From assembly GCA_000004695.1 (NCBI GenBank), contig CM000154.2, forward strand, positions 256,001-320,000: DNA of 64,000 nucleotides. The letters are read 5' to 3'. The notes under the pieces were generated by a model. That model was not told the origin of the DNA and searched no databases. It worked only from the letters and a program-made list of their open reading frames with translations. A program made the translations under genes and the position numbers. Shown piece after piece: positions 1,833 to 42,673 of this stretch (its first letter is position 1; every line of letters starts with the position of its first letter). The DNA comes from Dictyostelium discoideum (Eukaryota).

Positions 1833-1867
<35 letters not shown>

Positions 1868-3199: not shown

Positions 3200-3230
<31 letters not shown>

Positions 3231-18270: not shown

Positions 18271-18352
<82 letters not shown>

Positions 18353-18935
18353 AGAAATTAAATTTAATTTAAATATAAATGAAGAAAAAGATGATGAGAT
18401 TAAAGATTTATATAAAGTTATTGAATCATTAAAAAAAGAATTATTTGAAAAATATAAAGAAAATTTATTATTAAAAGAGAATTTAGACCAGGAAATAGAA
18501 TTTAATAAAGTATTAAAATTTGGAATGTTTGAAAAAAATAAAGAATTTGAAATATTAGCTACTCAATTAGGAATTTTAAAATCTAAATATGGAAATAAAA
18601 AATGTGATATTGAAGTTATAATCATTAGTAGTGATGATGAAGATGATGATAATAAAAATAAAAACCAATTAAAAGATATAACCACTACCACTACCTCCTC
18701 CACCACCACCACCACTACTACTACCTCTACCACCACTACTAATAATAGCTCTTCTGAAAATAATTTCGATGATCAAAATAAAGAAGAAGTTGTTTTTTGT
18801 AAACCTTATAACCAAAGTGATAATGATGAAGATTCTAAAAATAATTCAAAAGATTTAGGTTATAATGAAAATAATATTGGTGGTGATGCAACAGTAGGAG
18901 AATATAACTCTTATGTTGTTAAAAAAGAAATGTAA
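18270..18935 (+). CDS. Low-complexity acidic protein with polyN, a candidate SUMO-interacting motif (VIIISSDDEDDD) and a Thr/Ser run
   Basis: 221-aa ORF beginning with a 26-residue (AAT)n-encoded polyN. The middle is coiled-coil-like and KE-rich (LYKVIESLKKELFEKYKENLLLKENLDQE). The coding status of this Dictyostelium-style low-complexity sequence is moderately supported only. Confidence 0.4.
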
Positions 18936-19302
18936 AAATAAAAGGGTTCTAAGGTTGTGTGATCAAAAATTTTAATAAAAACAATTGTTTTTTTTTTTTT
19001 TTATTTTTATTTTATTTTTATTTTTTTTTATGGTTTGCAAACTCCCAAATATTCGAATTTTTGATATTTTTTATTTTTTTTTATTTTTTTTTTATTTTTT
19101 ATTTTTTTTTGACCATACACATCAAACACCCCTACTGTTTTTTTTTTTTTTTTTTAATTTTTTAATTTTTACTTTTTTCTCTTTCTACCTTTCTCTTTTT
19201 AATTTTTTAATTTATTTATTAGTATTATAAATATATTTATATTTATATTGTATTTTTTTTTTTTTTTTAAAAATTTAATTTTTTTTTTTTTTTTAATTTA
19301 AA

Positions 19303-22300
19303 ATGGGTAATAATAATGAAGATGGTTTAAATAATAACAATAACAATAACAATAATATTGAAAATAGAAAAGTTAAATTAAATAATACAGGTGATGAAAT
19401 CCCATTTTCGATGGGTAATGCATCATCATCACCATCTGCACCTCCACCATACCAACCTTCAATACAACCACTATATCAACCACCAACACAAAATCAATTC
19501 TTACCACAATATCAACAACAACAACAACAACAGCAACAACATTACCAACCACAATATCAACCAATAAACAATATGAGTTATCAACCAATACAACAACAAC
19601 AGCAACAACAAAGTAATTTCCCACCAACACAATATCAACCAAATAATATGAATTATATGGCATCACCACAACCATTATTACAACCTCAAATTATGACTAT
19701 ACAACCAACAACATTTTCAAATTCTCAAACTACAACTACAACAACTTTATCAAATCAACCACTTCAAACTTTATATATTCCAATTGATTCAGAATTTTAT
19801 CCATCTTATACACCACAATTGTAAGTTTTTTATTATTTTTTTTTTAATTTTTTTTTTTTTAATTCTTTTTTTTTTATTTTTTTTTATTCCAAAATTATTT
19901 ATTAATTAATTAATTTTAAAATAGTTTATATAAAAAAGATGATGAAAGAACTTATGGTATTGGTACATCATTAAAAGATTCATCATTTAATGAAATGATA
20001 AATAATAAAATTACAAATATATTTATAAAAACAAGAATGATACCACAAGTTAATGATGATTTATTGAATACAATTGTTAATTGTAAAAATTTAGAACATT
20101 TAAATTTATCAGGATGTGTTCAATTTAGTTCAACATTATTCTCTAAACAAATTTCAAGATTGAATCAATTGAAATCATTGAATTTAAATGGTTGTCAACA
20201 AATTACCAATGATAATCTTTGCAAGATATCAAATTCGTGTAAACATTTAGAAGAGATTCATTTGAATGGTTGTAATAGAGTCGATGATCAGGGTATAGTA
20301 GATTTGGTTAGTAAATGTAAAAAGATTAAAATCCTATCAATGAGTGGTTTAAATCTTTTAACCGATAGATCAATGACAATGATTTGTCAAAAATTACAAG
20401 ATCTTCAATCACTTTGTATCAACCATATTCAATGGTTCACTGAGAAGTCTCTAATGTTGATTGGTAAAAAGTTTAAGAATTCCCTACGTTGTTTCTACGC
20501 TTATAATACATTGATCACTGATAGCGTACTCTCGGATATAGCAATCAATTGTTCATCACAATTATCGGTGATTAATGTCTCCAAATGTAAAAATATTACA
20601 AACACTTCAATAGCCACCATTGCGATCAATTGTGGTAAAATGCTAACTAAATTGTTTTTACAAAATATTGAATGTCTTTCAATTCATAGTATTTCATTGT
20701 TGGGTAAATACTGCACACAACTTACAACACTACGTTTGGATGGTTGCTTAAATCTAATGGATGATTCAATTCAATCATTACAACCATTGGAAAGGCTAAA
20801 GATTTTAAACCTTTCAAATCTACCAAAGATTAATGAAATCTCATTGATAAGAATTTTACCATCATTAAAAGACTTGGAGGAATTATATCTCTATGAGAAT
20901 CCACGTTTCTCTGATTTAACCATTAAACAATTATCAATTAGCAATCCAAGAATCACTTCATTACGTGTTGATAAAACAGTGTTCGTATCAGATGCTTCAA
21001 TTATACCATTTACCAATAGTGTCAGCTATTTAAGAGTTTTGAATCTATCTGGTTTACAATCGATTCATGACTCTAGTATTATGGCATTGGCTACCTCTCA
21101 AAAATTCATTCAAAAACTTTATCTATCAGGTTGTAAATCCATTGGCAATGATTCATTGTTTGCAATTACTGGTCATATGTCATCCTCTTTGGAAGTATTG
21201 AAAATTGATGATTCTCATCAATTCACAGAGGAGGCTCTATCATCAATTAGTCTATTAAAAGGTTTAAAAATTTTATCAATTTCTCATTGTGTCCATACAA
21301 CTAATAATACCATTGATTTGATTGGCTATAATTGTAGAGAGTTGGAACAATTGTACATGTGTAAATTACCAATGGTCAATGATGCAGTACTACCAGCATT
21401 ATTATCAAATCTTTGTAAATTAAAAATCCTTAGAATCGATGGTTGTGTAAATATGACCGATCGTTCATTGACTGGCATTCGTTTCCTCAATCGTTTATGT
21501 TTGGAAGTTTTCAATTGTTCCGATAGTAGAATTGGTTGTGGTGGTTTGTTAACAATTCTTCAACAATCTTCAATTCGTGAACTTTATGCATGGAATTGTG
21601 ATTATATTACTGATGATATCTTAAAAACCATTGCAAACGATGCTTCATCCATTCAAATCCTACGTTTGGATGGTTGTAAAAATATTAGTGACAAAGGTGT
21701 ACGTACATTAATTCAAAGATGTCCACTTTTACGTATTCTAAACATTTCCAATACAAAGAGTTCCGATGAAACCTTGCAAACCGTCGCTGGCTATTGCAAA
21801 CGTTTAAAGAAACTCTATGCAAATAATTGTACTAAAATCACCTCGTCCGGTATTTCAGCGATCGCCTATCAATGTAATGAATTGACCATTTTGAATGCTT
21901 CACGTTGTGCAAATATTACCGATAATGCAATCATTGATATCTCTTTGAAATGTAAACTTTTGAAACGTTTAATACTAAACTATTGTCCAAAGATTACCAG
22001 TCAAGCAATCATCAGAGTATCAGTCGGTTGTCAAATGTTAAAAGAGATCTCTTTGAAAGGTTGTACCAATTTGGATGAAATGGGTGTTCTCTCACTTTCT
22101 ACCTATTGCAAACGTTTACAATATATCGATTTCACTGATTGTCACTTGGTAACCGATCTATCGATACTTGGTATTGGTAGAGAATGTTTACTTTTGAAAT
22201 CAGTCATTCTCACTGGTACCGCTGCTCAAGATAATGGTGTCATTGAAATTTGTGTACGTTCAAATGTAAATATTTTAACTTTAGATCTGGAAAGAACTAG

Positions 22301-22445
22301 AATTTCTGATCGTGCTGTTCAAATCATTGCTCAAATGTGTCCTGCTATTAAAAATTTAAATCTTTTAAATACCCAAATTACTCCTCAATCAATTGATTCT
22401 GTAAAACATACTTGTTTCCTTTTAACAAATTTACAATCTAAATAA
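19303..22445 (+). CDS. Protein with an N-terminal Q/P/Y-rich low-complexity domain and a C-terminal array of cysteine-containing leucine-rich repeats (FBXL/AMN1-type LRR_cc). 2 exons: 19303..19820, 19925..22445
   Basis: ORF 19303..19824 ends in caattgTAA, but the TAA overlaps a GTAAGT donor at 19821. The acceptor aaaatag at 19922-19924 puts exon 2 at 19925. Exon 1 ends in phase 2 (tt) and the join tt+t gives F, then runs in frame into ORF 19995..22445 (LYKKDDERTYGIG...MINNKITN...). The LRR consensus LxxLxLxGCxxITDxxL recurs about 20 times. No F-box was seen upstream of the LRRs. Confidence 0.6.
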
Positions 22446-22468
22446 AATTAAATTATTATTTTTTGAAT

Positions 22469-22512
<44 letters not shown>

Positions 22513-22565
22513 AATATTTTGAGGTAATATCTTTCGCAACAAAAAATAAACATATTACCTGTCCT

Positions 22566-22576
22566 GGGATTCGAAC
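22566..22576 (-). promoter_or_regulatory. Extra B-box (exB) about 35 bp downstream of tRNA-Ile
   Basis: The revcomp of gggattcgaac is GTTCGAATCCC. It is followed by an acceptor-stem-like CAGGACAGGTA, which may be a tRNA 3'-remnant. Confidence 0.5.
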
Positions 22577-22610
22577 ATGCGATCATTAATATTTTTCTTT
22601 TAAAAAGACT

Positions 22611-22683
22611 TGCTCGATGCAGGGATCGAACCTGCGACCGTGGCGTTATTAGCACCACGCTCTGCCGACTGAGCTAATCGAGC
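22611..22683 (-). tRNA. tRNA-Ile (anticodon AAT)
   Basis: Minus strand GCTCGAT TA GCTCAGTCGGCAGAGC G TGGTG CTAATAA CGCCA CGGTC GCAGG TTCGATC CCTGC ATCGAGC A. The 7-bp acceptor stem is perfect and the anticodon loop is CTAATAA. I recognise it as nearly identical to metazoan tRNA-Ile-AAT. Confidence 0.9.
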
Positions 22684-22731
22684 CTTTTATATTTTTTGAT
22701 TAAAATTGGAAGATCAAGTTTTAAAAAAATA

Positions 22732-23389
22732 TACAAATTCATACCAACTCCTGGCCAAAAAGAAATAATGACCAAAATTAATAGCAAACACCTTCCATTT
22801 AAAGAAATCAAAAAAATAATAAACATGAAAGGTAGAGATCTATTATGGAGATACACACTGAAAGCACTACCAAAAATATACAACATGCCATGCCAACAGT
22901 GTGGGGAAGATGAGACTTCAGAACATATATTCTTCAACTGCAAAGCCCACATCAAAAACACACAAGAAATCTTCAACTACACCCTAACTAAGTGTGGACA
23001 CACCACTCACACCTGGAATGTGAAGATTTTAAACCATCTACAAATTGCACTAGTAGCCAATTTAATAGCTATTATATTCGAAAAAATCTGGCACAAAAGA
23101 AATAAACTCATTCACGATGAAAAAGAAATAATAATTCACAGACAACAAGTAATACGTGAACTAATTAAAACACAAATAGCTGCATGGGACAGGACACAAG
23201 CGGTTATAAACAAAACATTAAGAATCAAATCAAAGCAACGGCCAGAAGAACAAAATAAATTAGACTCACTAATCTCGCTAAAGCTATTACAATTTAGCAG
23301 ACAATGGAACTCACCTCTTCACGCAATAGAACTTCCTAAACATCTCAAAAAATACAATAATTCACTCAGTACTTTCTATAAATAAATAA

Positions 23390-23435
<46 letters not shown>

Positions 23436-23729
23436 GGAACCCAAGTTAATCAAAAAATTTCCAGATTTTTAACTTTTTAAAGAAAATTAAAAAAATTAGA
23501 AGGAAATTAAATTGAAATTCACAACCACCCCCACAAATATTAAGCACCACAAATGCCTACAAAAAATAAGCGAAATTGGGGATAAAACTCAATTAAAAAA
23601 AAAACAATTCAAATACGTCATAAACATCAATTCCGGACCCAGACGATAAAAAAAAAAAAAATTTTAAAAAAAGTTGGGACAAAAAAAATGTTTTTATCAA
23701 AAGGAAAAAACCCATTTAAAATTTGGCCC

Positions 23730-23784
<55 letters not shown>

Positions 23785-23870
23785 TTAACCAACCCCTCTT
23801 TTAGAGACCCTGTAAAAAAAAAAAAAAAAAACTCATTTAAGATTTTAATTTCAAAAAAAAAAAAATAAAA
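22732..23870 (+). mobile_element. 5'-truncated TRE5-A fragment: ORF2 C-terminal zinc-knuckle region, oligo(A), degenerate B-module, C-module, A-tracts
   Basis: ORF 22696..23385 carries CQQCGEDETSEHIFFNCKAH, a Cys/His motif typical of non-LTR ORF2 C-termini. It ends with the same ...AIELPKHLKKYNNSLSTFYK* as the element at 14.8 kb. Then comes (A)n-cctgggaacccaagttaat and a degenerate copy of the ORF1 start. The fragment is head-to-head about 48 bp upstream of tRNA-Ile. The 23.4-23.9 kb part has many homopolymer anomalies (cccc, gggg) suggesting low read quality. Confidence 0.6.
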
Positions 23871-23953
23871 AATAAAAAAATGAAGATCAAGGCAATGAAA
23901 AAGCGACAAAAAAAAAAAACGATAAAAAAAAAAACTACAAAAACATTTAGCAT

Positions 23954-24784
23954 CTATAAGTCATTTAAAAAAAAAAAAAAAAAAAACTCATTTAAGATTT
24001 TATTAAAATTTAATATCTGTTTCTTCCAACTCTGTGAAATTTTTTTTATCTTTAAATATTTTTCTATAATTAAAATATTTTTTCTGGAAAATTTTGGATT
24101 TTGAGCATCCTCCTTATTTTCACCATTAATATCATTGCCACTACTATTACTACTACTATTACTACTACTAATACTACCATTATTAATACACACGCTAACA
24201 CCATCTAAAGGTGTTGGATTATAAAATCCACTCCAATGAACATTGTTTTGAACAACTGATAATTCCAGATTATTATTATTATATTGGTCACAATAGATGT
24301 CTGATGGATAACATTCGACCATATAGTCAGAATCTGCAACAATGTCACATTCTATTTGATTTACTTTAATAGTTAGATCATTTCGAAAAATTTCACTACC
24401 AAACCAACCATTTAGTATAAATAGATTACCAAGAGCACCTCATTTAATTTCTTGTGAGGTAACCATAGTATTAGGTATCTTACAATTTGAAGCAGTCCAT
24501 TGAATAGTACAATTACATTGACCAAATAAATAATCACAAATTCCACCATTACTACAACCTAATCCTTCATTACATAGTCTACCACTACAATCATCGAATA
24601 TTCTATTTTCATTACATTCGCATTTACCATTAATATTATTACAAATACCACCATCATTATTACTACAATCTGATGAGCATTTCAATGGTTTTTGTTCACA
24701 TTGATAACCTCTCCTTTCATTTGAAAAACAACCACAAACTCCACTCTCTTTATTATATACACCTCCATTTTTTATATTACACAC
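23954..24784 (-). pseudogene. EGF-like Cys-rich protein gene remnant with an in-frame TGA
   Basis: Minus-strand ORFs 24440..24784 (CGCFSNERRGYQCEQKPLKCSSDCSNNDGGICNNINGKCECNENRIFDDCSGRLCNEGLGCSNGGICDYLFGQCNC, EGF-like spacing) and 23954..24322 are in the same frame, separated by a TGA at about 24437-24439. No signal peptide or start is found upstream. It is embedded in retroelement debris. Confidence 0.35.
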
Positions 24785-25084
24785 TGGAACTGGACAATTA
24801 AAATTTCATTCAATTTGAAATTAAAACTATTTGAATGGGATAGAACATTTAAGAAGAATGGAAATAAAAAATTCTCAAATAGATCTTACGTGGAAGATAA
24901 TGAATAAGTTGGAAAAGTTTATCCACGAATTCACAACTGATGAAAACTTATGTACTGAACATTTAACCCTTTATTGCTCTTTCAATACTAATTGTTTAAA
25001 TTCAAACAATACATATATATATAATACTTAAATAAAAATAAATGTAAATAGGACACATCTTAGCTTGGGATGAGTCATTAAAAA

Positions 25085-25160
25085 AAAAAAAAACTTTTAA
25101 AATACAAAAATCTCAAAGAGAAGCAACTAATAATTGCGTTATCCAATTCAAAAAAAAAAA
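25085..25160 (+). mobile_element. Isolated TRE5-A C-module 3'-terminal fragment with oligo(A)
   Basis: atctcaaagagaagcaactaataattgcgttatccaattc(A)20 matches the C-module end at 15200..15257. A second tail-like copy (gagttatccaattcg(A)9) lies at 25252..25275. Confidence 0.5.
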
Positions 25161-25959
25161 AAAAAAAAAGCATTTTAAAATACAAATTGAGATCCAATTC
25201 AAATAAAAAGGTTTTAAAATACTAAATGGATCAAGAGAAACAGATCAGCTGAGTTATCCAATTCGAAAAAAAAAGTTAAAAAATACTTTTTTTTTAATGA
25301 TTTTGTTAGGGCAATGTTTAATTCCAACAGGTAAAGTTAAAGCAGAAGCATTAAGAAGGTAAATCTAAAGGATCAAAAAATTTTTTTTTGGTATTTTTGG
25401 TGACAAAAGATTTAAACCATTGTGATAATATTGGTTGTGCATTTAGTTTTGGAATGATTGTTAAGATCGCAGCCATGAATCAAATTATCACCAAAATTCA
25501 CCTAACTATAGAACGTATTGATAACTTAAATGAAAATAATGGAGGTCTTTTAAAATGTATTTAGAGTTGAAACCATTGGTGAGAGGTCCTCTTGAAAATA
25601 TGACAACCACTCATGCAACATAAAGTTCCAAATGTTAAATAAGAAAAATCCGGTCATATTTAAATACAATCAAGTTATGGCTGTCCGCAATGCAAAAAAA
25701 TCAAAATATTGGAAAATAGTTTCCACTACCGGCGAAATAAGAGTTTGAGACTTACTTCGAGGTTTCATTCACCTTCTCAAGCCCGGTTGTGATGCTAAAA
25801 ATGCTTCTTTGTCCAACGCTGGTCATTTTGGATTAAAATTTTATTATGTACTTCAAAGGAAACACCGGAAAAAAGTATATTCTAATTGTAGATAAAATTT
25901 AAAAATAAATATGAATTCATTTTAATTAATTTTTTTTTTGAATGGATAAATAAAAATCT

Positions 25960-25995
25960 TTTTTTTTTTTTGAATTGGATAACGCAATAATTTTT
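25960..25995 (-). mobile_element. Inverted TRE5-A C-module tail fragment
   Basis: The plus strand reads (T)n-gaattggataacgcaataatt-(T)n, which is the revcomp of aattattgcgttatccaattc(A)n. Confidence 0.45.
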
Positions 25996-26087
25996 TTTTT
26001 TTTTTTTTTTTTTTGGTTTTTTTTTTTTTTTTTTTTGGTTACGTAAAATGATAAATAAAAATCTAGATTCCGTTATTTTTGAAAAAA

Positions 26088-26350
26088 TGTAATAAAGCTT
26101 GTTAGCTTTATAAATATATAATTAATAATTATATAATTGAATAATACTTTGTTATCTTTATTTAATATTAGTTTATATTTATAATATTCAATATTGTTTA
26201 TAAAATTATTCTTTAGTATTTATATTATTTATAATGAGTTGACAGTATTATTATTATTATTATTATATTATTTAAATGTGTGTCAACTATAATTAGTAAT
26301 GTAATATGCATATTTAATATCTATTAATTTTATAGAGTAACTTTATTACA
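26088..26350 (-). repeat. LTR (263 bp) of a Ty3/gypsy-type retrotransposon, with an adjacent polypurine tract
   Basis: On the minus strand it starts TGTAATAAAG and ends CTTTATTACA, a 10-bp terminal inverted repeat with TG...CA ends. The PPT AAAAGGGGGGG lies immediately 5' at 26351..26365 and the internal ORF ends inside the LTR start. Confidence 0.65.
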
Positions 26351-26947
26351 TATCCCCCCCTTTTAGTTGAAAAAAATTTTTCAATCTTTTAATATAAAAC
26401 ACATCATGATTTTTAATATTATCCAATACTAATTTGAATTTTAAATCGCTAACTCTCTCGTGTACTTTGAAAAGACCTTCCCAAGATTTATTGAGCTTTA
26501 CTGGACCAACAGTGGATTGTAAATAGACATAATCTCCTACTTGAATATTTGAACGAGAAACTTTTTTATTAATTTGTGATAATTGGTCTTTACCAAGATT
26601 ATCCTTAATGAGACAAGGACGTTTGAGGTTATTATTTACAATTTGGGCGAAATTATGAGCAAAATCTAATCTTGATAAATTTGTACATGGATTTCTTATT
26701 AATGGTTGAATTGAGGTTATTTGTGATTTAATTATTGAATTCTCTGTTTGATTTAATGATATTGATTTTAATGGTAAATTCGATGTTATTGGTGAATCTA
26801 TTGGTTCTTGGAATAAGAATTCTGGAATATCGTAATCTATTGGTAGTTGTTCTTCAATAGTTGGATACGATTTGATTGATAGTATATGATGAGAATTAAA
26901 ATTTTCAATTAAATGATCAGTATCTGTTAATAATTCTGATTTTGATG

Positions 26948-26978
<31 letters not shown>

Positions 26979-28010
26979 TGAATAATCAGATACTGTTTTA
27001 AATATAGTTTGTATACATGGTTGGGTTTCTTTAGATATTAATTTGGTACCAACATTGAATTCAAGATTCTTAATGATCATTTCTTTAAAATCAATGACTA
27101 AATTTAATCCAATTATTGTATCAATGCCAAATATACAATCAATTGATGTATCATTATCTTTAACAACATTAACTTTAACTCTAGCGAATGCTTTACCTAA
27201 TTTAATTGTTGTGTTACTTATTCCAATGATTTTGATTTGATTATTTGATGCTGATTTAACAGAATATTGTTCATTTTCAATCTTTAATTTTAACTTTTTA
27301 GCAATACTTTCCCAAACAATAGTAAGTGATGAACCAGTATCAATCAAACCTCTAACATTTTTATTATTTATTAATAAAGCTGCATTCATACTATCTATTC
27401 CAATTGAATTAATTGTACTATTATTGACCATTGTAATTGAATTAGTTCTATTATTGTAATTGTTATTATTATTTTTATCTTTTGACCAACACTCTTGAAT
27501 TACATGACCTTTCTTTTTGCAATATTTACAAAATTTTGTGATTGAATTTACTTGATTTTGTGGTGCTTTATAAGGGGATGATTGTGGTGACATTTGTGGT
27601 GATCGATTATAATATTGATTTTTAAAAATTGGTGTTGAAATTTCTTCAGATTCAATTGATTGTTGTTCGTTTTGAGATGTAACATATTGAGGGGATGTTG
27701 CAGAATAACCAGAACCCGAACCTAGATATCTTTGATTACCAAATTCTTGCAACGTCTTTGCAACTAATTGACCAGTGTACATTGATCTACCTTTGATACG
27801 AATTGAACCATCTTCACAAGACTTTGCAATATCTATTGCTCTTTTTAATGATTTTGGTGCACATTTTGTAATTTTAATACCCAATTCAGTACCAACAGCT
27901 GAATAAAACAATTGTATTTTAAACTTTTCTGAAATATCAACTGCTGAACATTTTGATAGAAATTTACCAATTAATATATCTAATGTATTGTATTTATATT
28001 CTCCCAACTT
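26346..28010 (-). mobile_element. Internally deleted LTR-retrotransposon coding region (gag with CCHC knuckle, aspartic protease, then integrase C-terminal domain), DGLT-A-like
   Basis: - Gag: CKYCKKKGHVIQEC.
- Protease: LIDTGSSLTIVW.
- No RT, RNase H or integrase core.
- The C-terminus IQVGDYVYLQSTVGPVKLNKSWEGLFKVHERVSDLKFKLVLDNIKNHDVFYIKRLK matches the GPY/F-type integrase C-terminal module of Ty3/gypsy elements.
- The upstream side runs into the assembly gap (28011..28111) directly abutting tRNA-Gly. tRNA-upstream targeting is the hallmark of DGLT-A.
- The ORF-track entry 26346..28238 is artefactually extended through the gap and the tRNA. Confidence 0.55.
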
Positions 28011-28111
28011 GNNNNNNNNNNNNNNNNNNNNNNNNNNNNNNNNNNNNNNNNNNNNNNNNNNNNNNNNNNNNNNNNNNNNNNNNNNNNNNNNNNNNNNNNN
28101 NNNNNNNNNNN
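28011..28111. other. Assembly gap (100 N); a single n also at 30552
   Basis: A run of N characters. The true size is unknown; it probably hides the 5' LTR of the adjacent element. Confidence 0.95.
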
Positions 28112-28120
28112 ATATAAAAA

Positions 28121-28191
28121 GCGTATGTGGTCTAGTGGTATGATGCATCCCTGCCACGGATGCGAACTGGGTTCGATTCCCAGCATACGCA
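28121..28191 (+). tRNA. tRNA-Gly (anticodon GCC)
   Basis: GCGTATG TG GTCTAGTGGTATGAT G CATCC CTGCCAC GGATG CGAA CTGGG TTCGATT CCCAG CATACGC A. The acceptor stem is perfect, the anticodon loop is CTGCCAC and the variable loop is 4 nt, as in Gly tRNAs. A candidate exB, GGTTCAATTCC, lies at 28232..28242. Confidence 0.85.
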
Positions 28192-28598
28192 TAATTTTCC
28201 ATTTGTTCAATTTGTTCGATTATAGAACGTAGGTTCAATTCCCTAAAAAATCATGAGTCTGTATTTATATACAGAGTTGCACATCTCTAGAAAAACAATT
28301 TTATTTTTAATAATATAAAAAAACCTCTCAAACAAAGTCAAACCAGTAAAAAAAAAACCAAAAACAATCAAACAACCCAAACACTATTCAAAAATCAATT
28401 AAAAAAACAAATAATCAACAAACCATAATAAATGGAAACAATGTGGGTAGTTCAAACATTCCACTACAAAAATCCAGCCAAATTCCAATTTAAAAAAAAA
28501 AAATTTAAGAAAAAAGATACAATCGAGTTTTTTTTTTTTTTTTTTTAGTAATAAATTAAATAATTTTATTTTATTTTTATTTTATTTTTTTTTATTTT

Positions 28599-31500
28599 TT
28601 ATCTTTTCATATGATTAATAAATCTTAAAGCTAAATAACCAAGAAAAGTGTAAGCGCAGAAATAACCACCAAGGATTATTAAATTATAAAATTGACGATC
28701 GTAAGCGTCGTTCATACCATATTGCAAAAGCATAGTATCACCACTTTGAATGGCACAATATTTTTTAGTGAAATTTGTTCCGGCAATAGGAATTATACTA
28801 TATTGATCTTCTTCACAAAAAAAAGGTTCACCTTTAAGTTCAGTGATACTTAGAGTTTCCAAGCCATATTTAGAAAAGACCAAATAATGCATCCAAATCC
28901 AACCTCTTGGAATATTGTTTACTGGAATGAAGAAACCACCGAAAAGACCCAAGAAATTCAAGCCAACACCAGAGACCAAAATCGCAATTGGAATGGTAGG
29001 TAGAGTGAGTGCGAATAAAGTTGCCAAACTATCGTAACACATGATAACCAAAAGATAAACACTGAGAGAGAAGAAAAACTTCCAACCATGATCGCCCAAT
29101 GTTAATCCAGTTAAAAAGAACATTGGTATCCAATAGGAGAAAGCAGTTAAAACCATCATTGGTAAATCAGTGATAACACTTGCCAAAATATAAAGATGGG
29201 CTGGATAAGTACCAGCTGATGATTCTCTGTAATAGACTGAACGATCTTCGACGATGGTTGGTACTTTACCAATGGAAGCCATACCACCAAAGAGGAAACC
29301 CAAGAAAACCAAAGCGATTCTATTACGTGCACCAGTTTGATCATTATCCAATCTAAGAAAGAGAGTACCAATTACAATTGCAGGAATGAATGAACGTAAG
29401 AATCTAAGTAGAATAGTTTGTGGACGACGAACATGATTTAACCAACCTCTTTTAACCAAACTATGAAGTTGAGCTGTTGCAGGAGCAGAGTATTTACCTT
29501 TATATTTTGGAACGTCAACACCCTCTGGTACGATAGTTTTTGATTCCAATCTTTGAATTGAATTTGAATAATGAATGGATGATTTAAAGTAATCACTTGC
29601 ACTTTGACCTGTTGATGGTGGATGTTCAGCGATTTCCAAAATGAAATCAGCTGGATTTCTACCATGTTCATATTGATAACCTGCACTTGTGAAATGTTGA
29701 ATAACGGTTGAACTATTGTCACCAGTATCACCAAAATAAATTACTTTACCCTTGTCCAAGAGTAAAAGTTGATCGAATTTCTCAAAGATTTCTTGTGATG
29801 GTTGATGAATTGTACAAACTACAGTTCTACCAGATTCTGCAATCTTTTTAACACAATTCATAACTTTTAAAGCGGCTGAAGAATCTAAACCAGAGGTAGG
29901 TTCATCAAGGAAAATCAAATGAGGATCTGAAGCCAACTCAATACCAATACTAACTTTTTTACGATTTGCCAATGAAATACCCAATGTTGGATTTGGACCA
30001 ATGGTTGTATTTTGCATTTTAGTTAGAGAGAGAACTGATAAAATCTCATCGATTAATTTAACTCTATCCTTTTGAAGATAAGATGATGGTAAACGACAAT
30101 TTGCACTAAATTCAATTGCTTCACGAACTGTTAAATTTGCAGAAAGAATATCTTGTTGTTCAACATAACCAGTGAAACGAGTGATATTCATATCCTTTAC
30201 CAACTGACCATTGATTCTAATGTCACCAGTGATTGTACCAACATTTTTTCTCTTTGCCAATACATCCATTAATGTTGATTTACCAGCACCTGAAGGACCC
30301 ATTAAAGCGCACATACCTGGAACAATGAAACCATTTACATCCTTTAGTAACTCTAAGGTTACTTTTTCCTTTTTACCAGTTTCTTTATTATCTTTAACAG
30401 AGGGTACAACATAATTTAAATTTTGAAAAGTCATATAACAACCATTCCATTTATGTTTAACCTCTTTATCCTTTTTATCTTTTTTCTCTTTCTTTTTCTT
30501 TAATTTAATTTGTCTTGGTGGTTTTTTATTTTCAAATCTAATATATTTAACNCCTAAAAAGAAGATGAAAAAGAATGTACAAACGAAACCTAAAATGATT
30601 ACAATATCAACCCAACGCATATAAGAATTATCAGAGAAACCAAATTGATTTAAAAAATCACTACCAGTACTATATTGACAAATTTGATTACCTTGATAAC
30701 CACCATCGGCATACGATACATTTAATAGAGGATAATTTGATGGTGGAATCTTTTCCATTGGTGAACAATGAAATTCCAAACCATACAATTCATTCGATGA
30801 TACCATATCGATTACATATCTCAATGGTGATAATGCATTTAACCAAATCCACCAACCTGGAATTTGTAAACGACTAATCATATAACCTGACATAATCATA
30901 AATAATACAACTATCGCTGGACAAATTAAACTTGCCAATAATTGAGCCGATGTGAAAGCTGATGTAACTTGAAAAATACCTTGAGCAATTAAATTGGTCA
31001 ATGCCATACCCAATATGAAAACTATGAAATTATCAACACGTGCTTGAAAACCTGCAATCCAATAACAACAACTTGAAAATAATATTGCCTCTATCAATGA
31101 GATTGGAATTTTAGTGATTACCAATGATAAAAAGTATGGGAAATTTCTATAATACTTTGAGTCCTTTTGGTCATCGAAAATGCCTCTTAATGTGAAAAAC
31201 TCTTCAACACTACCAATCGTTGTCCAAATATGTAATACCATTGCAAAGTAAACTAATCCAAATCTATTTCTAGCATCAGCTTGTGTGAACCCCATCTTAA
31301 CAAATAATGATCCGATTACACAACCCATAAAAATGGCTTGAAAGAAACGTACTGCATATTGCATTTTCATAATTTTCATAACTTTAATATGACGTGCCAA
31401 TAAATGTTTTAATTCATAACGTACTGATGATTTACCATTATCACCAGTTTCTAATTTCTTTATTAAATGATCTGAAACTTTAATATCACTTGGTATTAAT

Positions 31501-32788
31501 TGTTGCATTGATTGTATTGTTTTTTGATTTAATTCAGATTCTTTAAATAATTTAACCAAATCCATCTTTTCAACATTTCCACTATCTGCACCACCTAATA
31601 ATAAACTTTTGCTTTCGTCATCACCACCATCTTTTGATGATAATTCAATTTTATCAGTTATCATATATTTTGAAGGTTCAACTGAAACCTCTTGCATAAA
31701 TTCTGCCAATGGTTGGTTTGGTAATGGTGCTAATCCAATCGATGAGAAATAAGGTAATAAATTATTTAATTCTCCAAAGTAAATTAAATTACCACCTTCA
31801 CCTAAAATTAAAATGTCATCGAATAAATTGGTTAATTCAACCGATGGTTGTAATAATGATACCATAACCGATGCTTTTGCCTCTTTGGCAATGGTTTTAA
31901 CTTTTGATATTACATTATAGGATGTTGCTGAATCCAAGCCTGTCGAAGGTTCATCCATTAATATTAAATTTGGTGATCTTTTTGTAAATTCATTAGCAAT
32001 TGTAACTCTTCTCTTTTGACCACCTGAAATACCTCTAAAAAATTGATTACCAATGATAGTATTTGATGTATGTGAAAGTCCAAGTTGATCCAATACCAAA
32101 TCGACACGTTCACTTTGTTCCTCTTGTGATACATTCTCTCCCATATTACATTTTGCACTAAATTCCAATGTCTCTCTAACTGTCAACAATGCAATATGTC
32201 TATCATCTTGTGAAACGAAAATTGTATCACGTTGATGAGTCGTCTCATCAACTTCATGATTATTAAATTTTAATTCACCTTCAATTTTACCTTTACCTAA
32301 TCTATTACCTAAAACCTTTAATAATAAACTTTTACCTGCTCCTGGTATACCCATTAATAATATCATACGACCAGGCTTTTTTTTTATTTTAATAATAAAA
32401 AAATTAAAAAAAAAAAAAATAAAAAAAAAAAAAATAAAAAAAAATATTAGTATATTAATTTTGTTTAGAGAAAAAAAAAAATAATAATAAAAATAAAAAT
32501 AAAAAAAAATAAAAAAAACTTACTTTCATTGTAAATGAAATATTATTTAATAAATATAATTTACTAAGTTCTTCACTTTCACCTTTTTTAATACTTTTTG
32601 GAATATAATATGATATGTTGTTTGCAGAAACAAACATACCAGTTTTATTTTGAGTTACACGTTGTTTAATATGATTTGAAAGATCATAATTTATATCAAT
32701 TTCAATTGAATCTATATGACTACTAGATGCTGGTGTTGGGTTTTGATATATTATTTTATTATTATCGTCATCATTATTATTAATATCG

Positions 32789-32880
<92 letters not shown>

Positions 32881-32928
32881 ATTATCTGGTGCTTTTTCTT
32901 GGAGTTCAATATTATTTTTATCTTCCAT
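28599..32928 (-). CDS. Full-size ABCG (PDR/white-type) transporter, NBD-TMD-NBD-TMD, about 1394 aa. 2 exons: 32524..32928, 28599..32375
   Basis: Exon 1 (ORF 32455..32928, polyN-rich N-terminus) ends ...ISFTMK at a GTAAGT donor (revcomp aacttac at 32519-32523). An AG acceptor at 32376-32377 joins in phase 0 to PGRMILLMGIPGAGKS (Walker A of NBD1). The second Walker A is GMCALMGPSGAGKSTL, and ABC signature-like motifs ISGGQKRRV and LDEPTSGLDS are present. Two 6-TM hydrophobic blocks follow each NBD. Confidence 0.8.
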
Positions 32929-33208
32929 TTTTATTTTTATTTTTTAATTTAAAAAAAAAAAGAAAAAAATAATATCCTTTTTAAATTAAAAAAAAAAAAA
33001 AAAAGAAAGAAATAACACAAAAAATATTTTTTTTTTTTTTTTGTTTTTTTTTTTTTGTTTTTTTTTTTTAATTTATTTTTTTTTTTTTGAATTCCAGATT
33101 TTAGGAGAAGGAGAGATTAAAAAAATAAAATAAAAAAAATAAAATAAAATAAGATTAAGGAAGTTGGAAGTCTAATTAAGTTGGAGTAAAAAAATTATTT
33201 TATTTTAA

Positions 33209-33243
<35 letters not shown>

Positions 33244-33864
33244 GAGTTTGTCTTTGATTGTTCGTTATTTTTATTTTTATTTTTATTTTTTATTTTTTAT
33301 GGAACAATTGAAACAAAAAAACAAAAAAAAAAAAAAATTTTATAGTTTTTAGGAAATGGTTGAAAAAAAAAAAAATAAAATAAAAAATAAAAAAAAAAAT
33401 AAAAAAAAATTCTTTTTTTTTTTTATTTTTTTTTTGTAAAGGTTGTATGGTTCTCTTCCATTTGCTTTTTTACCAGTCTATTAATAATTTTTACAAGATT
33501 TCATAAGGTGTGAAAGAATTCCTCGCGATTGTCACACCACGAAATTTTGATTTTTTTTTTTTATTTTTAATTTTTATTTTTTTTGTTTTTTTGTTAAAGA
33601 TCAGATTTTTACATTTCTATTGCGAAAAAAAGAAAATGAAAAAAAAAATAAAAATTCAAAAAAAAAAAAAACGTACCCACGTGTTTATTAAAAAAAATTA
33701 ATGAGTCATGACAGAAGAAAAAAAAAAAAAAAAACGTTATTTATGATTTGAAAATAAACTTCTTTTTATAGAAAATACTTTTGGTATGTTCATTAGTATT
33801 TTTTTCTTTTTTTCTTTTATTTTTTTCATATATTATTATTTTTTATAAAAAAAAAAAAAAAATC

Positions 33865-33922
<58 letters not shown>

Positions 33923-34617
33923 GGGAAAAAACAAAAATGTTCCCCCCGCCTTTAAAAAAAAAAAAATTAAAAATTCCAGGTCCCAAAATTCTTTTTTAAG
34001 CCACCTAAAAAAAATCCAAACGGTTTTTTTATTTTTTTTTTAATAAAAAAAAAAAGGGGGCCCCCCGGGGTTTGTTACTTTAAAAAGGGAACGTTATTCC
34101 AAAAGGGTGTTTTTTTTTTTTTTCCCACCAACGTTTAAAATTTTTTTTAAAAAAAAAAAAAAAAGTAATAATAACGTTGCGGGAAAAATAAAAAAAAAAA
34201 AAAAAGTAATTATAACGTTGCGGAAAAAAAAAAAAAAAATTAAAACGTTGGTATTTATTTCTTTTAATCATTTTTAAACTCCAATACTAATTTATTATTC
34301 CCATCATTTCTAATTCCACAATTATCATATATTATTAGTAATACAGTTTTTTCATTTTAGTTACTTGCATGTATGTAAATTTTAATTCCACTTCAAAATT
34401 GGTAATTACCAATAAATTAAAAAAATAATAATAATAATAATTATTAAAAGATAAATAAAAAAAAAAAAAAAAAAAAAAAATGAATTATTATTATTATTTT
34501 AAATCAAATAATTGTTTTTATATTTTTAAATAAACGAGTTTATTTTTATTTATTTATATTTACAATATATTAATTTTTTCCCCAAAGTTAATTCCTTTTT
34601 TTTTTTTTTTCAATTTA

Positions 34618-35886
34618 TCAATATAATTGATAATCTTTATTAAAAGTATTACCAAATAATGATCTATCAATTGAATTATATAAATTTCTAACTTCAACAT
34701 TTGGAATTCCATAAATTGAATCGATTCTCCAAATGGCACAACCTAACAAACCAGTTTCAGCCAATTTATAATAAGTTGACTTTGCATTATCATATTGAAT
34801 TTGATAAATATCACCATTTTGATCTAATTGATAATTTAAATAGGGAGTTCTAGAATTTATATTCCAAAGTTCCATTGAAGTTTTATAACCACTACCCAAA
34901 CCATTCTTATATTGAATTATATCTTTATAATAAACTTTTCTTTTTGAATTTAAATCAATTTTACATGAACTTAAAAATATATTGTAAGGTTCATTATTAT
35001 TATTATTATTATTATTATTACATTTAAATTGATAACCATACCATGGTATTGATAATATCAATTTATTAGGATCAATTAATTTTTGAGTTATCCAATATTT
35101 ATAGATTTCATTTCTAACGACAACTCCATCTGAATTTGGTCTTGCCAAATCGAATGATGAGTCTAGGTCATAGGCATTCACCATAATGAAATCACAATTT
35201 GTTGAAATTGATTTAACATCATAGTTTCCAATTTTTAATGGTAATGAAACTGAGAAATGTGACGATACAATATTTCTTTTTAATGCTTGGCTAAATTTAA
35301 AAATTTTTAATTTATAATTTATATCAACTGGAAATTTAAAATATAATGATGCACCATCAGCTTCAACTTCTTTAATTTGATTAATTATTACATCTATTGA
35401 AGTTTCCATAACCTCTATTGATTTATAACCTTGAATTTCATTATAGGATACCATTAATGAAACCAAAACTTGATTTGAATGAGCTATTTTTATAATTTCT
35501 TTTAAATTTTTTAAATCTCTTGGAATTAATAATATATCAATTGATTCCCATATAATTGATCCAGCATATTTATCTTTATTATTAAAATCATTAAATCCAT
35601 TATAATTACTATTATTATAATAATTTAAATCATCACTTAAACTATAACCAATTATTAATTTTTTATTTTTATTATTATTTTTAAATAATTTATTTAAATT
35701 ATTATTATTATTATTATTATTATTTATATTGATATTATAGTTTAAAATTAAATTTGATGAAGAATTTATATCTGTATCAACCACATTGGAACTTTGAACT
35801 TTTATTTTTTTTTCATTTATAAAATTAATTATACAAATATATATTATAAATAAATTTATTATTTTTTTTTTAAAAATTGATTTCAT
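34618..35886 (-). CDS. Secreted GH18 (chitinase-like) family protein, catalytic motif degenerate (probably inactive)
   Basis: 422-aa ORF with a signal peptide. GH18 landmarks are present: MVNAYDL (MxYD), SIPWYGYQF and GCAIWRIDS. The DxxDxDxE catalytic motif is replaced by EADGASLYFKF (Lys in place of the catalytic Glu). Confidence 0.6.
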   Translation of the reverse strand: MKSIFKKKIINLFIIYICIINFINEKKIKVQSSNVVDTDINSSSNLILNYNININNNNNNNNNLNKLFKNNNKNKKLIIGYSLSDDLNYYNNSNYNGFNDFNNKDKYAGSIIWESIDILLIPRDLKNLKEIIKIAHSNQVLVSLMVSYNEIQGYKSIEVMETSIDVIINQIKEVEADGASLYFKFPVDINYKLKIFKFSQALKRNIVSSHFSVSLPLKIGNYDVKSISTNCDFIMVNAYDLDSSFDLARPNSDGVVVRNEIYKYWITQKLIDPNKLILSIPWYGYQFKCNNNNNNNNNEPYNIFLSSCKIDLNSKRKVYYKDIIQYKNGLGSGYKTSMELWNINSRTPYLNYQLDQNGDIYQIQYDNAKSTYYKLAETGLLGCAIWRIDSIYGIPNVEVRNLYNSIDRSLFGNTFNKDYQLY

Positions 35887-36796
35887 TATTTATATATTAT
35901 TTTATTTTATTTTTTTATTTTTATTTTTTTTTTTTTTTCCCAAAGAATAACAAGGAAAAAAAAAAAAAATAAATAAAGGAGTGTTGATTGTATAGTAAAA
36001 TTTGATAACAGTTGTTTTTTAATGATAGAAAATTAAGACTAAAGGATACCAAATAAAAAAAATAAACAAAAAAAAAAAAAAAAAAAAAAAGAAAAAAGTA
36101 GAAAAATTAAAAATAGAAAAGAAAAGAAAAAAAAAAAAAAAAAAAAAAAAATTGTATATTAATTATAAACCACACCAGTGTGTGTGAAAATTTTAAGTTG
36201 TTTTTTGTTGTTATTTTAAAGGAAAACATCTACTGTGTTAATTATAATAAAAAAATGTTTTAAAATAAATTTTTAAAATATAAATAAATTATCAGGTTAA
36301 AAAAAAAAAAAAAAAAAAACCCAACCAAACAAATATTGGTGGTTTGTTGCACCATCGACGTTCAAAATCATCGATAAGTTTCAAGTGCGATTGTCGCAAG
36401 ATTAGGTCTGAATTCCCACTTCAGATTTTTTGTTTTTACACTCGATAACTTTTTTTTATTTTTTTTTTTTTTTTTTAATATACTTTTTTTTTTTTAATAT
36501 TTTTTTAATTTTTTTAATTTTTGTTTAATTTTTTTTTTTTTTAAAAATATTTATTTATAACTTTTTTTGTTTTCACCCACACCCAAAATAACCTATTTCC
36601 GTAATTTAAAATTACAACATTCATTAATTTTTTTTTTTTTTTAATTATTTTTAATTTTAATTTTAATTTTTATTTTTTATCACTTCCAAAAAAAAAAAAA
36701 AAATAAACAAAAAAAATTTAAAAATTAATAAATTAATAAATATATATAAAAATAAATAAGCAAATAAAATTAAATAAAATAAAATAAAAAAAATAA

Positions 36797-38152
36797 ATGA
36801 TCAATAATATAATAAAAAAATTAAAAATAATAAAAATAATAATAATTTTAATATTTTTAATAAATTTTATAAAATGCGAAGATATAAATATTAATACTAA
36901 TAATACTAATACTAATAATACTAATAATAATAATACTAATAATAATAATACAATAATAATAAATGATGGACCATTATGTCCAAGTAAACCATTATGTCCA
37001 TGCATTTGTGAAGAATGTGGACCACCAATTGGTAGAAAAAATTCAAAACAAATTTTTATATATGTAGCAGGTAATAAACAATCAAATTATACATATTTTG
37101 AAAAGGATCCATCAGTTAAGTGGGAAGAAATCGATACATTGGCATTGTATTCTAATAAATTCGATAAGAGGATAACATGTCTAGCACATAGAAATAATGT
37201 GAAGGTTGTATTTACAATTGAAGAGGGTAGCGTTTTCGATGATTTTAAATATTTGAAAGTCAATGGCAACTATTGGGATGGCTATATAAACACAACTAGA
37301 TTGGTTAACACTCTTTTAGAAAACAATGTCGATGGCTATAGCCTAGATTTCGAATATGGTAATAGACACGGCAAAGATTTAGAATTTTCAAATACTTTGA
37401 AAACACTATACACAAAATTAAAATCCGTCAATGAAAACTACCAACTAACATCAGCATTCAGCGGCTACTATAGCGACGTATTGAAAAACCAAATTCAATT
37501 GGTTGCTGATAATTTAGATTATATAATTATTATGGGCTATGATTTTATAAATACTAAAATTGGTACCAATATAACTAATAGTGCCAATTCACCTATTGGG
37601 TTGAGGAAAATAGTTAAGAGTTGGTGGATGGACCCGTTAGAAAAAAAAGATAGTGCTAAGATTGTTCTGGCCGTTCCGTGGTATGGGCAGATTGCAAAAT
37701 GTGATTTGACGTATGAACAGAGGGCAAATGCGGCTACGATTTTCCAAGCAGATTGTATTATTGATAATCGTACGAGTGTTGTACAAAAACCAATTAGAGA
37801 AATACTTGCGTTGTTAAATAATGATTATTTAATATTTGATATTAATAATAATAATGAAAATATTATTAATAATAAAATAATAAATAATACAATTAAATAT
37901 TCATCTGGTATACTTTGGACTAGTAATACTCAAACTGTGTTTTCAAGATATCGTGATACAAATGGTGATATCTATCAATTCAATTATGATTCTCCATTTT
38001 CAATTTACTCAAAATTAAGATCACTTGGTATTGGTGGTGCTGGCGTTTGGAGTTTAGATAAAATTATTGGTTTACCAAAACCAATTATTGATGCATTTTA
38101 TTTCGCATTTAGTAGACAAGTTATTGGTGATACTTATATTGAAATTAATTAA
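36797..38152 (+). CDS. Secreted GH18 family protein (chitinase / di-N-acetylchitobiase-like), catalytic Glu retained
   Basis: 451-aa ORF with a signal peptide and a Thr/Asn-rich stretch. NVDGYSLDFEY fits the DGxxxDxE GH18 active-site motif, and IIMGYDF, AVPWYGQ and GAGVWSLD are further GH18 landmarks. It is divergently oriented to the paralogue at 34618..35886. Confidence 0.65.
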   Translation: MINNIIKKLKIIKIIIILIFLINFIKCEDININTNNTNTNNTNNNNTNNNNTIIINDGPLCPSKPLCPCICEECGPPIGRKNSKQIFIYVAGNKQSNYTYFEKDPSVKWEEIDTLALYSNKFDKRITCLAHRNNVKVVFTIEEGSVFDDFKYLKVNGNYWDGYINTTRLVNTLLENNVDGYSLDFEYGNRHGKDLEFSNTLKTLYTKLKSVNENYQLTSAFSGYYSDVLKNQIQLVADNLDYIIIMGYDFINTKIGTNITNSANSPIGLRKIVKSWWMDPLEKKDSAKIVLAVPWYGQIAKCDLTYEQRANAATIFQADCIIDNRTSVVQKPIREILALLNNDYLIFDINNNNENIINNKIINNTIKYSSGILWTSNTQTVFSRYRDTNGDIYQFNYDSPFSIYSKLRSLGIGGAGVWSLDKIIGLPKPIIDAFYFAFSRQVIGDTYIEIN

Positions 38153-38517
38153 AAATTAATAATAAAAAAAAAAAAAAAAATTTTGTACAAATAAAATTTA
38201 ATTTTTTTTTTTATTTTTTTTTTTCATATAAAAAAAACACAATCTATATATGAAAAATAAATTGATTTATTTTATATTAAATTATTAAAATTTGAAAATT
38301 TCTTATTTTATAATTGATTTAATCAATTTTTTATAATAGAGTGCAAAAAAAATATTAAAAAATAAGTAATTGCCTAATTAATATATAATAAAATTTAAAT
38401 ATTTTTTTTTTTTTTATTTAATATTTAAATTTGTTTCTTTTTCATTTAAATAATAAAAAATTAATTTTATTTTAATATTTTTTATTTAAATTTTAATATT
38501 TTAAATTATAAAATAAT

Positions 38518-38556
<39 letters not shown>

Positions 38557-38647
38557 GGAAATTAAAAAATAAAAAAATAAAAAATTGTTTATAGAAAAAA
38601 AAAAAAATGGTGGAAATTGATATTTTACAATTAATTTAAAATTATAA

Positions 38648-39029
38648 TTATTTTTTTATACTAAAATATATTATAAATATAAGTCCAACCAATGAAAACA
38701 CTCCTAAAACTAATGCCAATACTATCATAGTTGGTGATTTTAAAAATTTTGGATTTAATTCTACAAGTTCGAATTTCTTTTTTTTTTTATTTTAAAAAAT
38801 TAATAAAGAATTACCTTTTCGTTATTTTATTTTTTATTTTTTTTTTTTTAATTATTAAATAAATAAAATAATTAAAAAATTAATAAAGAATTACCTTTTC
38901 GTTTTGTATATTAATTATATGTTCATTTATATTGCCATTATTATTATTATTAATAATATTATTACTGTTATCGATTTCGTCAGTAATTATACTCTCTATT
39001 TCTTTTATATTTTTATTTTCTATTTCCAT
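38648..39029 (-). CDS. Small (88 aa) tail-anchored membrane protein. 2 exons: 38895..39029, 38648..38776
   Basis: ATG at 39027-39029 opens MEIENKNIKEIESIITDEIDNSNNIINNNNNGNINEHIINIQNEK. A GTAATT donor and an aaag acceptor at 38777-38778 join in phase 0 to KFELVELNPKFLKSPTMIVLALVLGVFSLVGLIFIIYFSIKK*. A single C-terminal TM helix is predicted. Confidence 0.35.
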
Positions 39030-39391
39030 CAAATTTACACCTTTTTTTTTATTAAAAAAAAATTTTATGATTATTAATTATTTTTTTTTTTTTTTTAATT
39101 TTTTAACATAAATATTAAAATTAAAAAATATTATAAAATATTAATCAGAAAAAAGAAATAAAAAAAATAATAAAGGATGTATAAAAAAGTCTAAAATTAG
39201 AATATTTTAAACCCTGGATTCATTTTTTTTTTTGTTAATTAAAAAAAAAAAAAAAAAATCTCTAATTAAGATTTGATCAAAAAAGAAATATGTTTTTTGA
39301 TTAAGATTTAATTAAAAAAAAAAAAGAAATATGTTTTTTTTTATTGTTTTTTTTTTTTTTTTTTTTAATTAATAAATTTAAATTATTTATT

Positions 39392-42637: not shown

Positions 42638-42673
<36 letters not shown>

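Follow-up and report, generated by a model that had tools for sequence, protein, structure and literature searches.

The stretch analysed here, called the window, comprises 64,000 nucleotides of Dictyostelium discoideum AX4 chromosome 5 (assembly GCA_000004695.1, contig CM000154.2, positions 256,001 to 320,000 of the forward strand) and is AT-rich, with 18–37% G+C. Its central feature is the body of a Ty3/gypsy retrotransposon on the minus strand, followed by an assembly gap and a tRNA-Gly(GCC) gene (Table 1). The open reading frame (ORF) of the element is identical to P0007, which is the partial gene model DDB_G0287455 of AX4 chromosome 5; further along, the GH18 gene at 34621–35886 is DDB_G0287463. 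From its sequence features the element can be assigned to DGLT-A, and an element of this kind is already catalogued, with known biology. With a probability of roughly 0.87, we read it as a single copy of a non-autonomous, 2.6-kb derivative that arose by deletion from DGLT-A, the Ty3/gypsy element of Dictyostelium that targets tRNA genes.

Table 1. Features of the element and its tRNA neighbour, in window positions. LTR, long terminal repeat; PBS, primer-binding site; RT, reverse transcriptase
Feature	Position	Strand	Basis or remark
Target-site duplication copy beside the 3' LTR, TTTT in element orientation	26084..26087	-	L004 5' flank ends ...ATTTTTT, 3' flank starts TTTTTTCAAAA
DGLT-A 3' LTR, 263 bp, TGTAATAAAG...CTTTATTACA	26088..26350	-	sequence comparison
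Single ORF: Gag, protease, unconstrained linker, integrase C-terminus; N-terminus cut by the gap	26346..28011	-	DDB_G0287455 (partial)
Polypurine tract CTAAAAGGGGGGGATA (G7), reverse complement of the positions given, abutting the 3' LTR	26351..26366	-	same sequence in every AX4-lineage copy
Integrase C-terminal SH3/GPY-F module, degenerate, WEGLFKV at 26463-26483	26373..26498	-	Pfam SH3_Tf2-1 19.1 bits, below the cut-off of 30
Linker with deletion junction and poly-Asn run	26694..27017	-	similarity fades against L006; no detectable constraint
Retropepsin-type aspartic protease, DTGS at 27330-27341	27120..27374	-	Pfam Asp_protease_2 E=9e-11, gag-asp_proteas E=8.7e-10
Gag nucleocapsid zinc knuckle CX2CX4HX4C, CKYCKKKGHVIQEC	27489..27530	-	motif; signature as published for DGLT-A (PMC5006619)
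Assembly gap, exactly 100 N	28012..28111	.	letter count
Last 9 bp of the 18-bp spacer from the DGLT-A 5' LTR to the tRNA gene	28112..28120	+	window matches L004 from exactly 28112 onwards
tRNA-Gly(GCC), integration target, 5' end towards the element	28121..28191	+	ARAGORN

Domains and family of the element

The LTR is the sole copy within the 64-kb window. It has TG...CA ends and 10-bp inverted termini (TGTAATAAAG/CTTTATTACA) and is 95–98% identical to the LTRs of paralogues. The orthologous locus was read in two pieces, L003 and L004, of record CM142511.1 in the gap-free assembly GCA_054883475.1, where the 5' LTR turned out to be split; the window LTR is 100% identical to both of its parts (L003 7583–7826 and L004 18224–18254). 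The original prediction, made for this DNA from the window letters, had claimed one complete 263-bp LTR with defined ends and a G-rich polypurine tract, and both were confirmed, the tract directly abutting the LTR.

The reading frame stays open for 554 codons, beginning at the gap edge (28010) and ending with a TAA (26346–26348) that lies inside the LTR, ~38 amino acids past the GPY/F motif. At the orthologous locus the complete ORF has 636 amino acids (P0008, L003 8001–9911). Retention of Gag (CCHC) and protease (DTGS), as predicted, is upheld by both motif and Pfam, and the predicted loss of RT, RNase H and the integrase core agrees with a Pfam scan of the window ORF in which RVT, RNase H, rve and Chromo all remained without a match. 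The claim that the GPY/F module of the integrase is retained stands in part: the module is present, but its motif is degenerate and its SH3_Tf2-1 score falls below the threshold. By comparison, the paralogue P0011 passes Pfam Integrase_p58_C (27.5 bits, cut-off 27) and carries the published Dd_DGLT-A GPY/F sequence as IQTGDFVYLHTPYSQTSIGPK(K)FYKPWRGPFKVQEK, with one K more than the PDF text of the published row shows. The C-terminus of both P0002 and P0011 reads IGPKKFYKP, one K above that row, which is IQTGDFVYLHTPYSQTSIGPKFYKPWRGPFKVQEK (PMC5006619 supplement, read from the PDF).

The integrase tail resumes at about NPCTNLSRLDF (26661–26693). Between the protease and this tail lie ~90–120 residues (window amino acids 332–439) that show no significant match to anything. 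An alignment with MAFFT gives a hint of likeness between the linker and the RT N-terminus (SPI, LN, PLI), and the linker is possibly a degenerate remnant of it. We do not claim such a remnant, the BLASTP comparison with the RT N-terminus of P0004, a longer copy of the element, being not significant (E=30).

The published Dd_DGLT-A has a 265-bp LTR and a 5054-bp consensus, and it inserts 13–33 bp upstream of tRNA genes in either orientation. Its PBS is TGGCGACATCGTCTTTC, and it has a single gag-pol frame with a CX2CX4HX4C knuckle (PMC5006619). In the window the PBS is hidden by the gap; it was read at the orthologous locus L003 and in the paralogues. The published PBS sits 2 bp (TT) past the 5' LTR at L003 and in four paralogues, and the sequence following the 5' LTR, TTTGGCGACATCGTCTTTC, is found in L001, L002, L003 (7827–7845), L009 and L010. 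The LTR of 263 bp is close to the published 265 bp; the single Gag-pol frame, the polypurine tract adjoining the right LTR and a GPY/F tail without a chromodomain are likewise DGLT-A features. At the orthologous locus an 18-bp spacer (L004 18206–18223), 9 bp of which are visible in the window, separates tRNA-Gly from the beginning of the 5' LTR upstream of it. A protein search with the window ORF returned relatives solely from Dictyostelium. PBS identity, LTR length, the lack of a chromodomain and the 18-bp tRNA distance bear out the proposed DGLT-A membership, and the 18 bp in the gap-free assembly also bears out the proposed location upstream of a tRNA gene. The copy differs from the published element in its size (2.6 kb for it and its relatives vs. 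5.05 kb), in the absence of RT, RNase H and integrase core, and in its degenerate GPY/F. Incomplete DGLT-A copies upstream of tRNA genes have been documented before (PMC5006619, PMC5633606).

That the feature might instead be a fragment of the chromovirus Skipper or Skipper-2, or of some other LTR family, has next to no probability. Skipper is the other Ty3/gypsy family of this genome, and a Skipper-like fragment is indeed present within the gap interval; however, Skipper LTRs are 390 or 208 bp long, Skipper has a polypyrimidine tract in place of the canonical TGG-type PBS that the element shares exactly with published DGLT-A, and its integrase is extended at the C-terminus by a long segment with a chromodomain. 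The element has Gag and pol in a single ORF, gives no Chromo match, and lies upstream rather than downstream of the tRNA gene. A weak Chromo match in the Skipper-like fragment of L003 served as the positive control, and the similarity between the element and the Skipper-like pol fragment is not significant.

The interval behind the assembly gap

In GCA_054883475.1, both window flanks are found on one 5.29-Mb record, in the same order and orientation: window 18301–28010 aligns with L003, and 28112–46387 with L004. Only a few low-complexity patches differ from the window, apart from one mismatch that falls within the element, and this near-identity indicates that the two assemblies represent the same strain lineage. 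According to the record coordinates, the 100 N stand for an interval of ~18.3 kb. The original prediction, which placed the gap in direct contact with tRNA-Gly(GCC), was wrong on this point, since the 9 bp of 28112–28120 separate them.

Proceeding from the DGLT-A body, the interval begins with 246 bp of gag and continues through the 5' leader, which contains the PBS, to LTR nucleotides 20–263; then come a non-LTR element together with the Skipper-like fragment, LTR nucleotides 1–31 and 9 bp of spacer. Seen outward from tRNA-Gly in L004 (18135–18205, minus strand), the 18-bp spacer and LTR nucleotides 1–31 are followed by a 198-bp unit repeated 3.4 times, a 454-amino-acid ORF1 and an ORF with an endonuclease domain. 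Towards the DGLT-A body, L003 contains a Skipper-like RT–RNase H–integrase–chromo fragment (1518–4283), a non-LTR RT ORF (4922–7351) and a poly(A) tail, after which come LTR nucleotides 20–263, the PBS, the leader and the first 82 gag codons.

The DGLT-A 5' LTR is thus split after nucleotide 31 by a non-LTR element whose 5' end faces the tRNA gene from 49 bp upstream and whose ORF1 and ORF2 read away from it. TRE5 elements insert 47±3 bp upstream of tRNA genes with their 5' end towards the tRNA's 5' end (PMC5391098), and by this placement and orientation the intruding element can be classed as TRE5-type. The two LTR pieces overlap by 12 bp (nucleotides 20–31), of which up to 4 bases could belong to the poly(A) tail; a non-LTR insertion would be expected to leave a target duplication of this kind. 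The DGLT-A body now lies ~18 kb from tRNA-Gly in this assembly. The original prediction, which expected the other LTR inside the gap, is borne out by the presence of LTR nucleotides 1–31 and 20–263 in the orthologous interval; what it had not foreseen is that this 5' LTR is split, a nest of other retroelements lying between its two parts.

The same data speak to whether the DGLT-A body and tRNA-Gly were wrongly joined by scaffolding and are not neighbours in AX4, an explanation to which we give very little weight. A gap of 100 N is an arbitrary placeholder and the flanks are ~18 kb apart in GCA_054883475.1, but there both flanks share one chromosome and keep their order and orientation, the halves of the split LTR fit each other with a 12-bp overlap typical of the duplication made by non-LTR insertion, and a separation of 18 bp between LTR and tRNA agrees with the preference of DGLT-A. 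The stack of repeats is the likely reason for the gap in the AX4 reference. The AX4 chromosome 5 gap corresponds to ~18 kb of nested retroelements piled on one tRNA gene, and the locus offers a clear case of two unrelated retrotransposons at one tRNA gene, at their characteristic 18 and 49 bp, the second inside the first.

Two further observations concern this region. Nearly all differences between the window and GCA_054883475.1 fall into the patches 23450–23790, 33925–34130 and 38399–38516, and this clustering suggests that sequence quality is locally at fault in one of the assemblies, and not that the strains have diverged. The Skipper-like fragment in the tRNA-Gly nest (L003 1518–4283) lies ~0.3 Mb from the end of the chromosome 5 record of GCA_054883475.1. 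Since Skipper-1 has been reported to be confined to centromeric clusters, the locus may be situated at the edge of the pericentromeric repeat region of chromosome 5.

The short copies and their origin

At least five AX4 gene models share the architecture of the window copy, namely DDB_G0279931, DDB_G0271456, DDB_G0287455, DDB_G0276009 and DDB_G0277283; they form two clusters at 90% identity and have counterparts in the newer assembly. The Gag–protease region is common to nine proteins, and the same junction occurs in eight of them, the ninth being P0004, the longer copy that keeps the start of RT. Four loci could be compared as whole elements, each with an identical LTR pair: the window locus (L003 and L004; ~2606 bp, duplication TTTT, Gly-GCC 18 bp from the 5' LTR), L001 (DDB_G0279931 on chromosome 3; 2594 bp, TTTC, Ile-AAU 14 bp from the 5' LTR), L002 (2618 bp, CTAA, Leu-UAA 14 bp from the 3' LTR) and L009 (2628 bp, ACGG, Val-AAC 28 bp from the 3' LTR). 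The elements at L001 and L002 are complete, with two LTRs each. At L010 the 3' LTR is cut off by the 3' end of a non-LTR element, and P0009 contains a frameshift.

A second, more distant assembly of the D. discoideum group, GCA_054859385.1, has the short architecture at two loci with ~75% nucleotide identity to the AX4 form. The LTR pairs of these copies are near-identical (3–4 differences), their target-site duplications are TCCG and CATA, and tRNA-Leu genes lie 12 and 14 bp off; the 635-codon frame is still open. Taken together, the short elements measure 2594–2628 bp (2667–2671 bp in the divergent lineage) against the 5054-bp consensus, the shortfall of the window copy being ~2.45 kb. Their 4-bp duplications, TTTC, CTAA, ACGG, TTTT, TCCG and CATA, are distinct from one another, and the tRNA genes lie 12–28 bp away, with the elements in either orientation. 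Several short copies thus have one internal deletion in common and a duplication of their own. Separate duplications around one shared internal structure imply that the short form itself moved, and the short copies appear to form a non-autonomous subfamily with several transpositions behind it. Because the LTR pairs are identical, the short form would be the last form of DGLT-A to have moved in AX4.

These copies also decide whether recombination at this very site removed RT, RNase H and the integrase core from a full-length DGLT-A that had inserted here. Independent decay would be compatible with the literature, according to which none of the nine non-solo DGLT-A copies in AX4 is complete. 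Such a local history appears highly unlikely, given that the junction and architecture recur at other loci with their own 4-bp duplications and identical LTR pairs, and again in a lineage at just 75% identity. The original description of an internally deleted element was correct in that the deletion is real; it is not a local accident, since the junction is common to many copies.

The derivation of the window copy from a mobile deletion derivative may be outlined as follows. The short element keeps the parts needed in cis, that is, both LTRs, the tRNA-type PBS and the polypurine tract, plus one frame for Gag (CCHC), protease and the integrase tail; it has no reverse transcriptase, RNase H, integrase zinc finger or catalytic core. 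Without polymerase and integrase core, the short form must presumably have used the enzymes of a full-length element, and we infer that a short copy would have been reverse-transcribed and integrated by RT, RNase H and integrase supplied in trans by full-length DGLT-A. The targeting machinery of this helper, in which RNase H and the integrase N-terminal domain are reported to bind the TFIIIC subunit Tfc4 (PMC6101501), would have placed the copy 18 bp upstream of tRNA-Gly(GCC), with its 5' LTR towards the tRNA and a 4-bp duplication. Later, as the gap-free assembly shows, a TRE5-type element inserted at its own preferred site, 49 bp upstream of tRNA-Gly, inside the DGLT-A 5' LTR.

Several points weigh against this interpretation. 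Mobilisation in trans is deduced from the structure of the copies rather than observed, and no full-length DGLT-A has been reported in AX4, nor any competent copy (PMC6101501). The TTTT duplication of the window copy is of low complexity and weak when taken alone. The content of the gap was read from GCA_054883475.1 and not from AX4 reads, and the interval was read except for CM142511.1:312179–319590 (7.4 kb). The breakpoints of the deletion have been placed approximately, relative to the partial copy L006 (the locus of P0004). Against L006, nucleotide homology ends at about codon 420 of the 636-amino-acid ORF and protein similarity at about codon 451 (window amino acid 369), the next 70–90 residues being without a significant match. 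Finally, the low ratio of nonsynonymous to synonymous divergence (dN/dS) in gag and protease, considered below, could have built up in autonomous relatives and then been transferred by recombination.

L006 was considered as a full-length DGLT-A reference and rejected, the contig end cutting the copy just past the RT N-terminus. The 1247-amino-acid polyprotein at L005 of D. cf. discoideum was also rejected for this purpose, being a member of another, divergent family and extending beyond the end of the locus.

Several known systems resemble the short element in part. In plants, TR-GAG and the barley element BARE2 are non-autonomous LTR elements that keep gag, LTRs, PBS and polypurine tract, have no polymerase and need an autonomous partner; unlike them, short DGLT-A has in addition retained, in the gag frame, the protease and an integrase tail, and it targets tRNA genes. 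Ty3 of Saccharomyces cerevisiae is likewise a Ty3/gypsy element and integrates upstream of tRNA genes, ~15 bp from the mature coding sequence. It differs in having two frames joined by a +1 frameshift and a 5-bp target duplication, whereas the DGLT-A copies studied here make 4-bp duplications. Moreover, the integrase of Ty3 binds TFIIIB, in contrast to the reported binding of Tfc4 by DGLT-A (PMC6101501). Closer to home, TRE5-A.2, a derivative of TRE5-A.1, is internally deleted, keeps its first ORF and cis ends and probably relies on the full-length element for its mobilisation in trans, with the tRNA-linked target sites being the same for both (PMC5391098). TRE5-A.2 differs from short DGLT-A in being of the non-LTR class, with target-primed reverse transcription, and in that its mobilisation was demonstrated experimentally, that of short DGLT-A being deduced from structure.

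For annotation, which is where the finding mainly matters, DDB_G0287455 and at least the four sister AX4 genes named with it are transposon ORFs. In the NCBI and UniRef records consulted, these genes are called just "hypothetical protein" or "Peptidase A2 domain-containing protein". The structure of the subfamily also provides a lead towards rebuilding a mobile DGLT-A system.

Constraint on the short form and neighbouring elements

Divergence between the two short lineages, the AX4 form and that of GCA_054859385.1, was evaluated with the Nei–Gojobori method. The dN/dS ratio was 0.20 for gag (dS 0.74), 0.25 for the protease and 0.49 for the integrase tail, and reached ~1.1 in the linker. The low gag and protease values fit selection for Gag and protease function within the short lineage. 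An open frame of ~630 amino acids, with gag and protease under purifying selection, has been kept across lineages that are 25% apart in DNA, and the short form accounts for most non-solo DGLT-A copies in AX4. On these grounds we tentatively suggest, as a possibility somewhat less likely than its opposite, that the 2.6-kb form of Gag, protease and integrase tail is a long-lived, selectively maintained non-autonomous DGLT-A lineage and more than the debris of decay. The copy at L002 bears on this point. It is a mosaic in which protease and linker are near-identical to those of the window copy, the gag linker and integrase tail being divergent and consensus-like; constraint could accordingly have been imported from autonomous relatives, and the selection reading is unproven. 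Should the lineage prove to be maintained, the retrotransposition-assay element that is lacking in Dictyostelium could be rebuilt as a marked short element plus helper, and the short form would be a rare protist case of an LTR retrotransposon being parasitised by an element that has kept gag.

Gag and protease under purifying selection would also fit a domesticated host gene whose Gag–protease protein is kept for a cellular function. The annotation "Peptidase A2 domain-containing protein" hints at such a gene, ORFs of 589–642 amino acids are intact at several loci, and the frame is open through the unconstrained AT-rich linker. Yet the Gag–protease ORF is multi-copy, every copy is flanked by LTRs, PBS, polypurine tract and target-site duplication at a tRNA gene, and the copies occupy different loci in different lineages, as expected for a mobile element and not for a fixed host gene; P0009 is frameshifted and L010 truncated. 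Domestication thus seems very improbable, and a mobile, internally deleted DGLT-A derivative is the reading that we retain.

The surroundings of the element contain further tRNA-linked sequences. Past the DGLT-A 3' LTR, the motif TTATTGCGTTATCCAATTC followed by poly(A) occurs in short fragments at 25128–25170 (+), 25250–25275 (+) and 25957–25992 (-). The motif resembles a non-LTR retrotransposon's 3' end and is also the sequence that truncates the 3' LTR in L010 (from 4646). At 22731–23790 (+), a 5'-truncated non-LTR retrotransposon retains the zinc-finger end of ORF2, after which poly(A) and low-complexity stretches follow. Its start lies ~47 bp upstream of tRNA-Ile(AAU) (22611–22683, -), and its 5' side is turned towards this tRNA, as is the pattern in TRE5. 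This element gave no megablast match to the non-LTR ORF of L003 and is not of the same family.

B-box-like sequences are present ~40 bp downstream of both tRNA genes, GGTTCAATTCC at 28231–28241 for tRNA-Gly and GGATTCGAAC on the reverse strand at 22566–22580 for tRNA-Ile, and both resemble the external B boxes that have been described at the tRNA genes of Dictyostelium. Directly downstream of tRNA-Gly, a two-exon full-size ABC-G (PDR-type) transporter occupies 28599–32928 (-), with a single N at 30552 in its coding region. When the C-terminal half of this transporter was used as a protein query, D. discoideum was absent from the matches. In D. cf. discoideum (GCA_054859205.1), L005 20155–21290, close to the orthologue of this ABC transporter, carries a tRNA-Gly(GCC) that is oriented the other way. 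The 1247-amino-acid gene model nearby encodes Gag, protease, RT, RNase H and integrase of the divergent LTR family mentioned above, and the in-frame stops within the 378 codons of L005 that were read imply that this model must be spliced. The arrangement at L005 indicates that the tRNA-linked transposon content of the region differs between close relatives.

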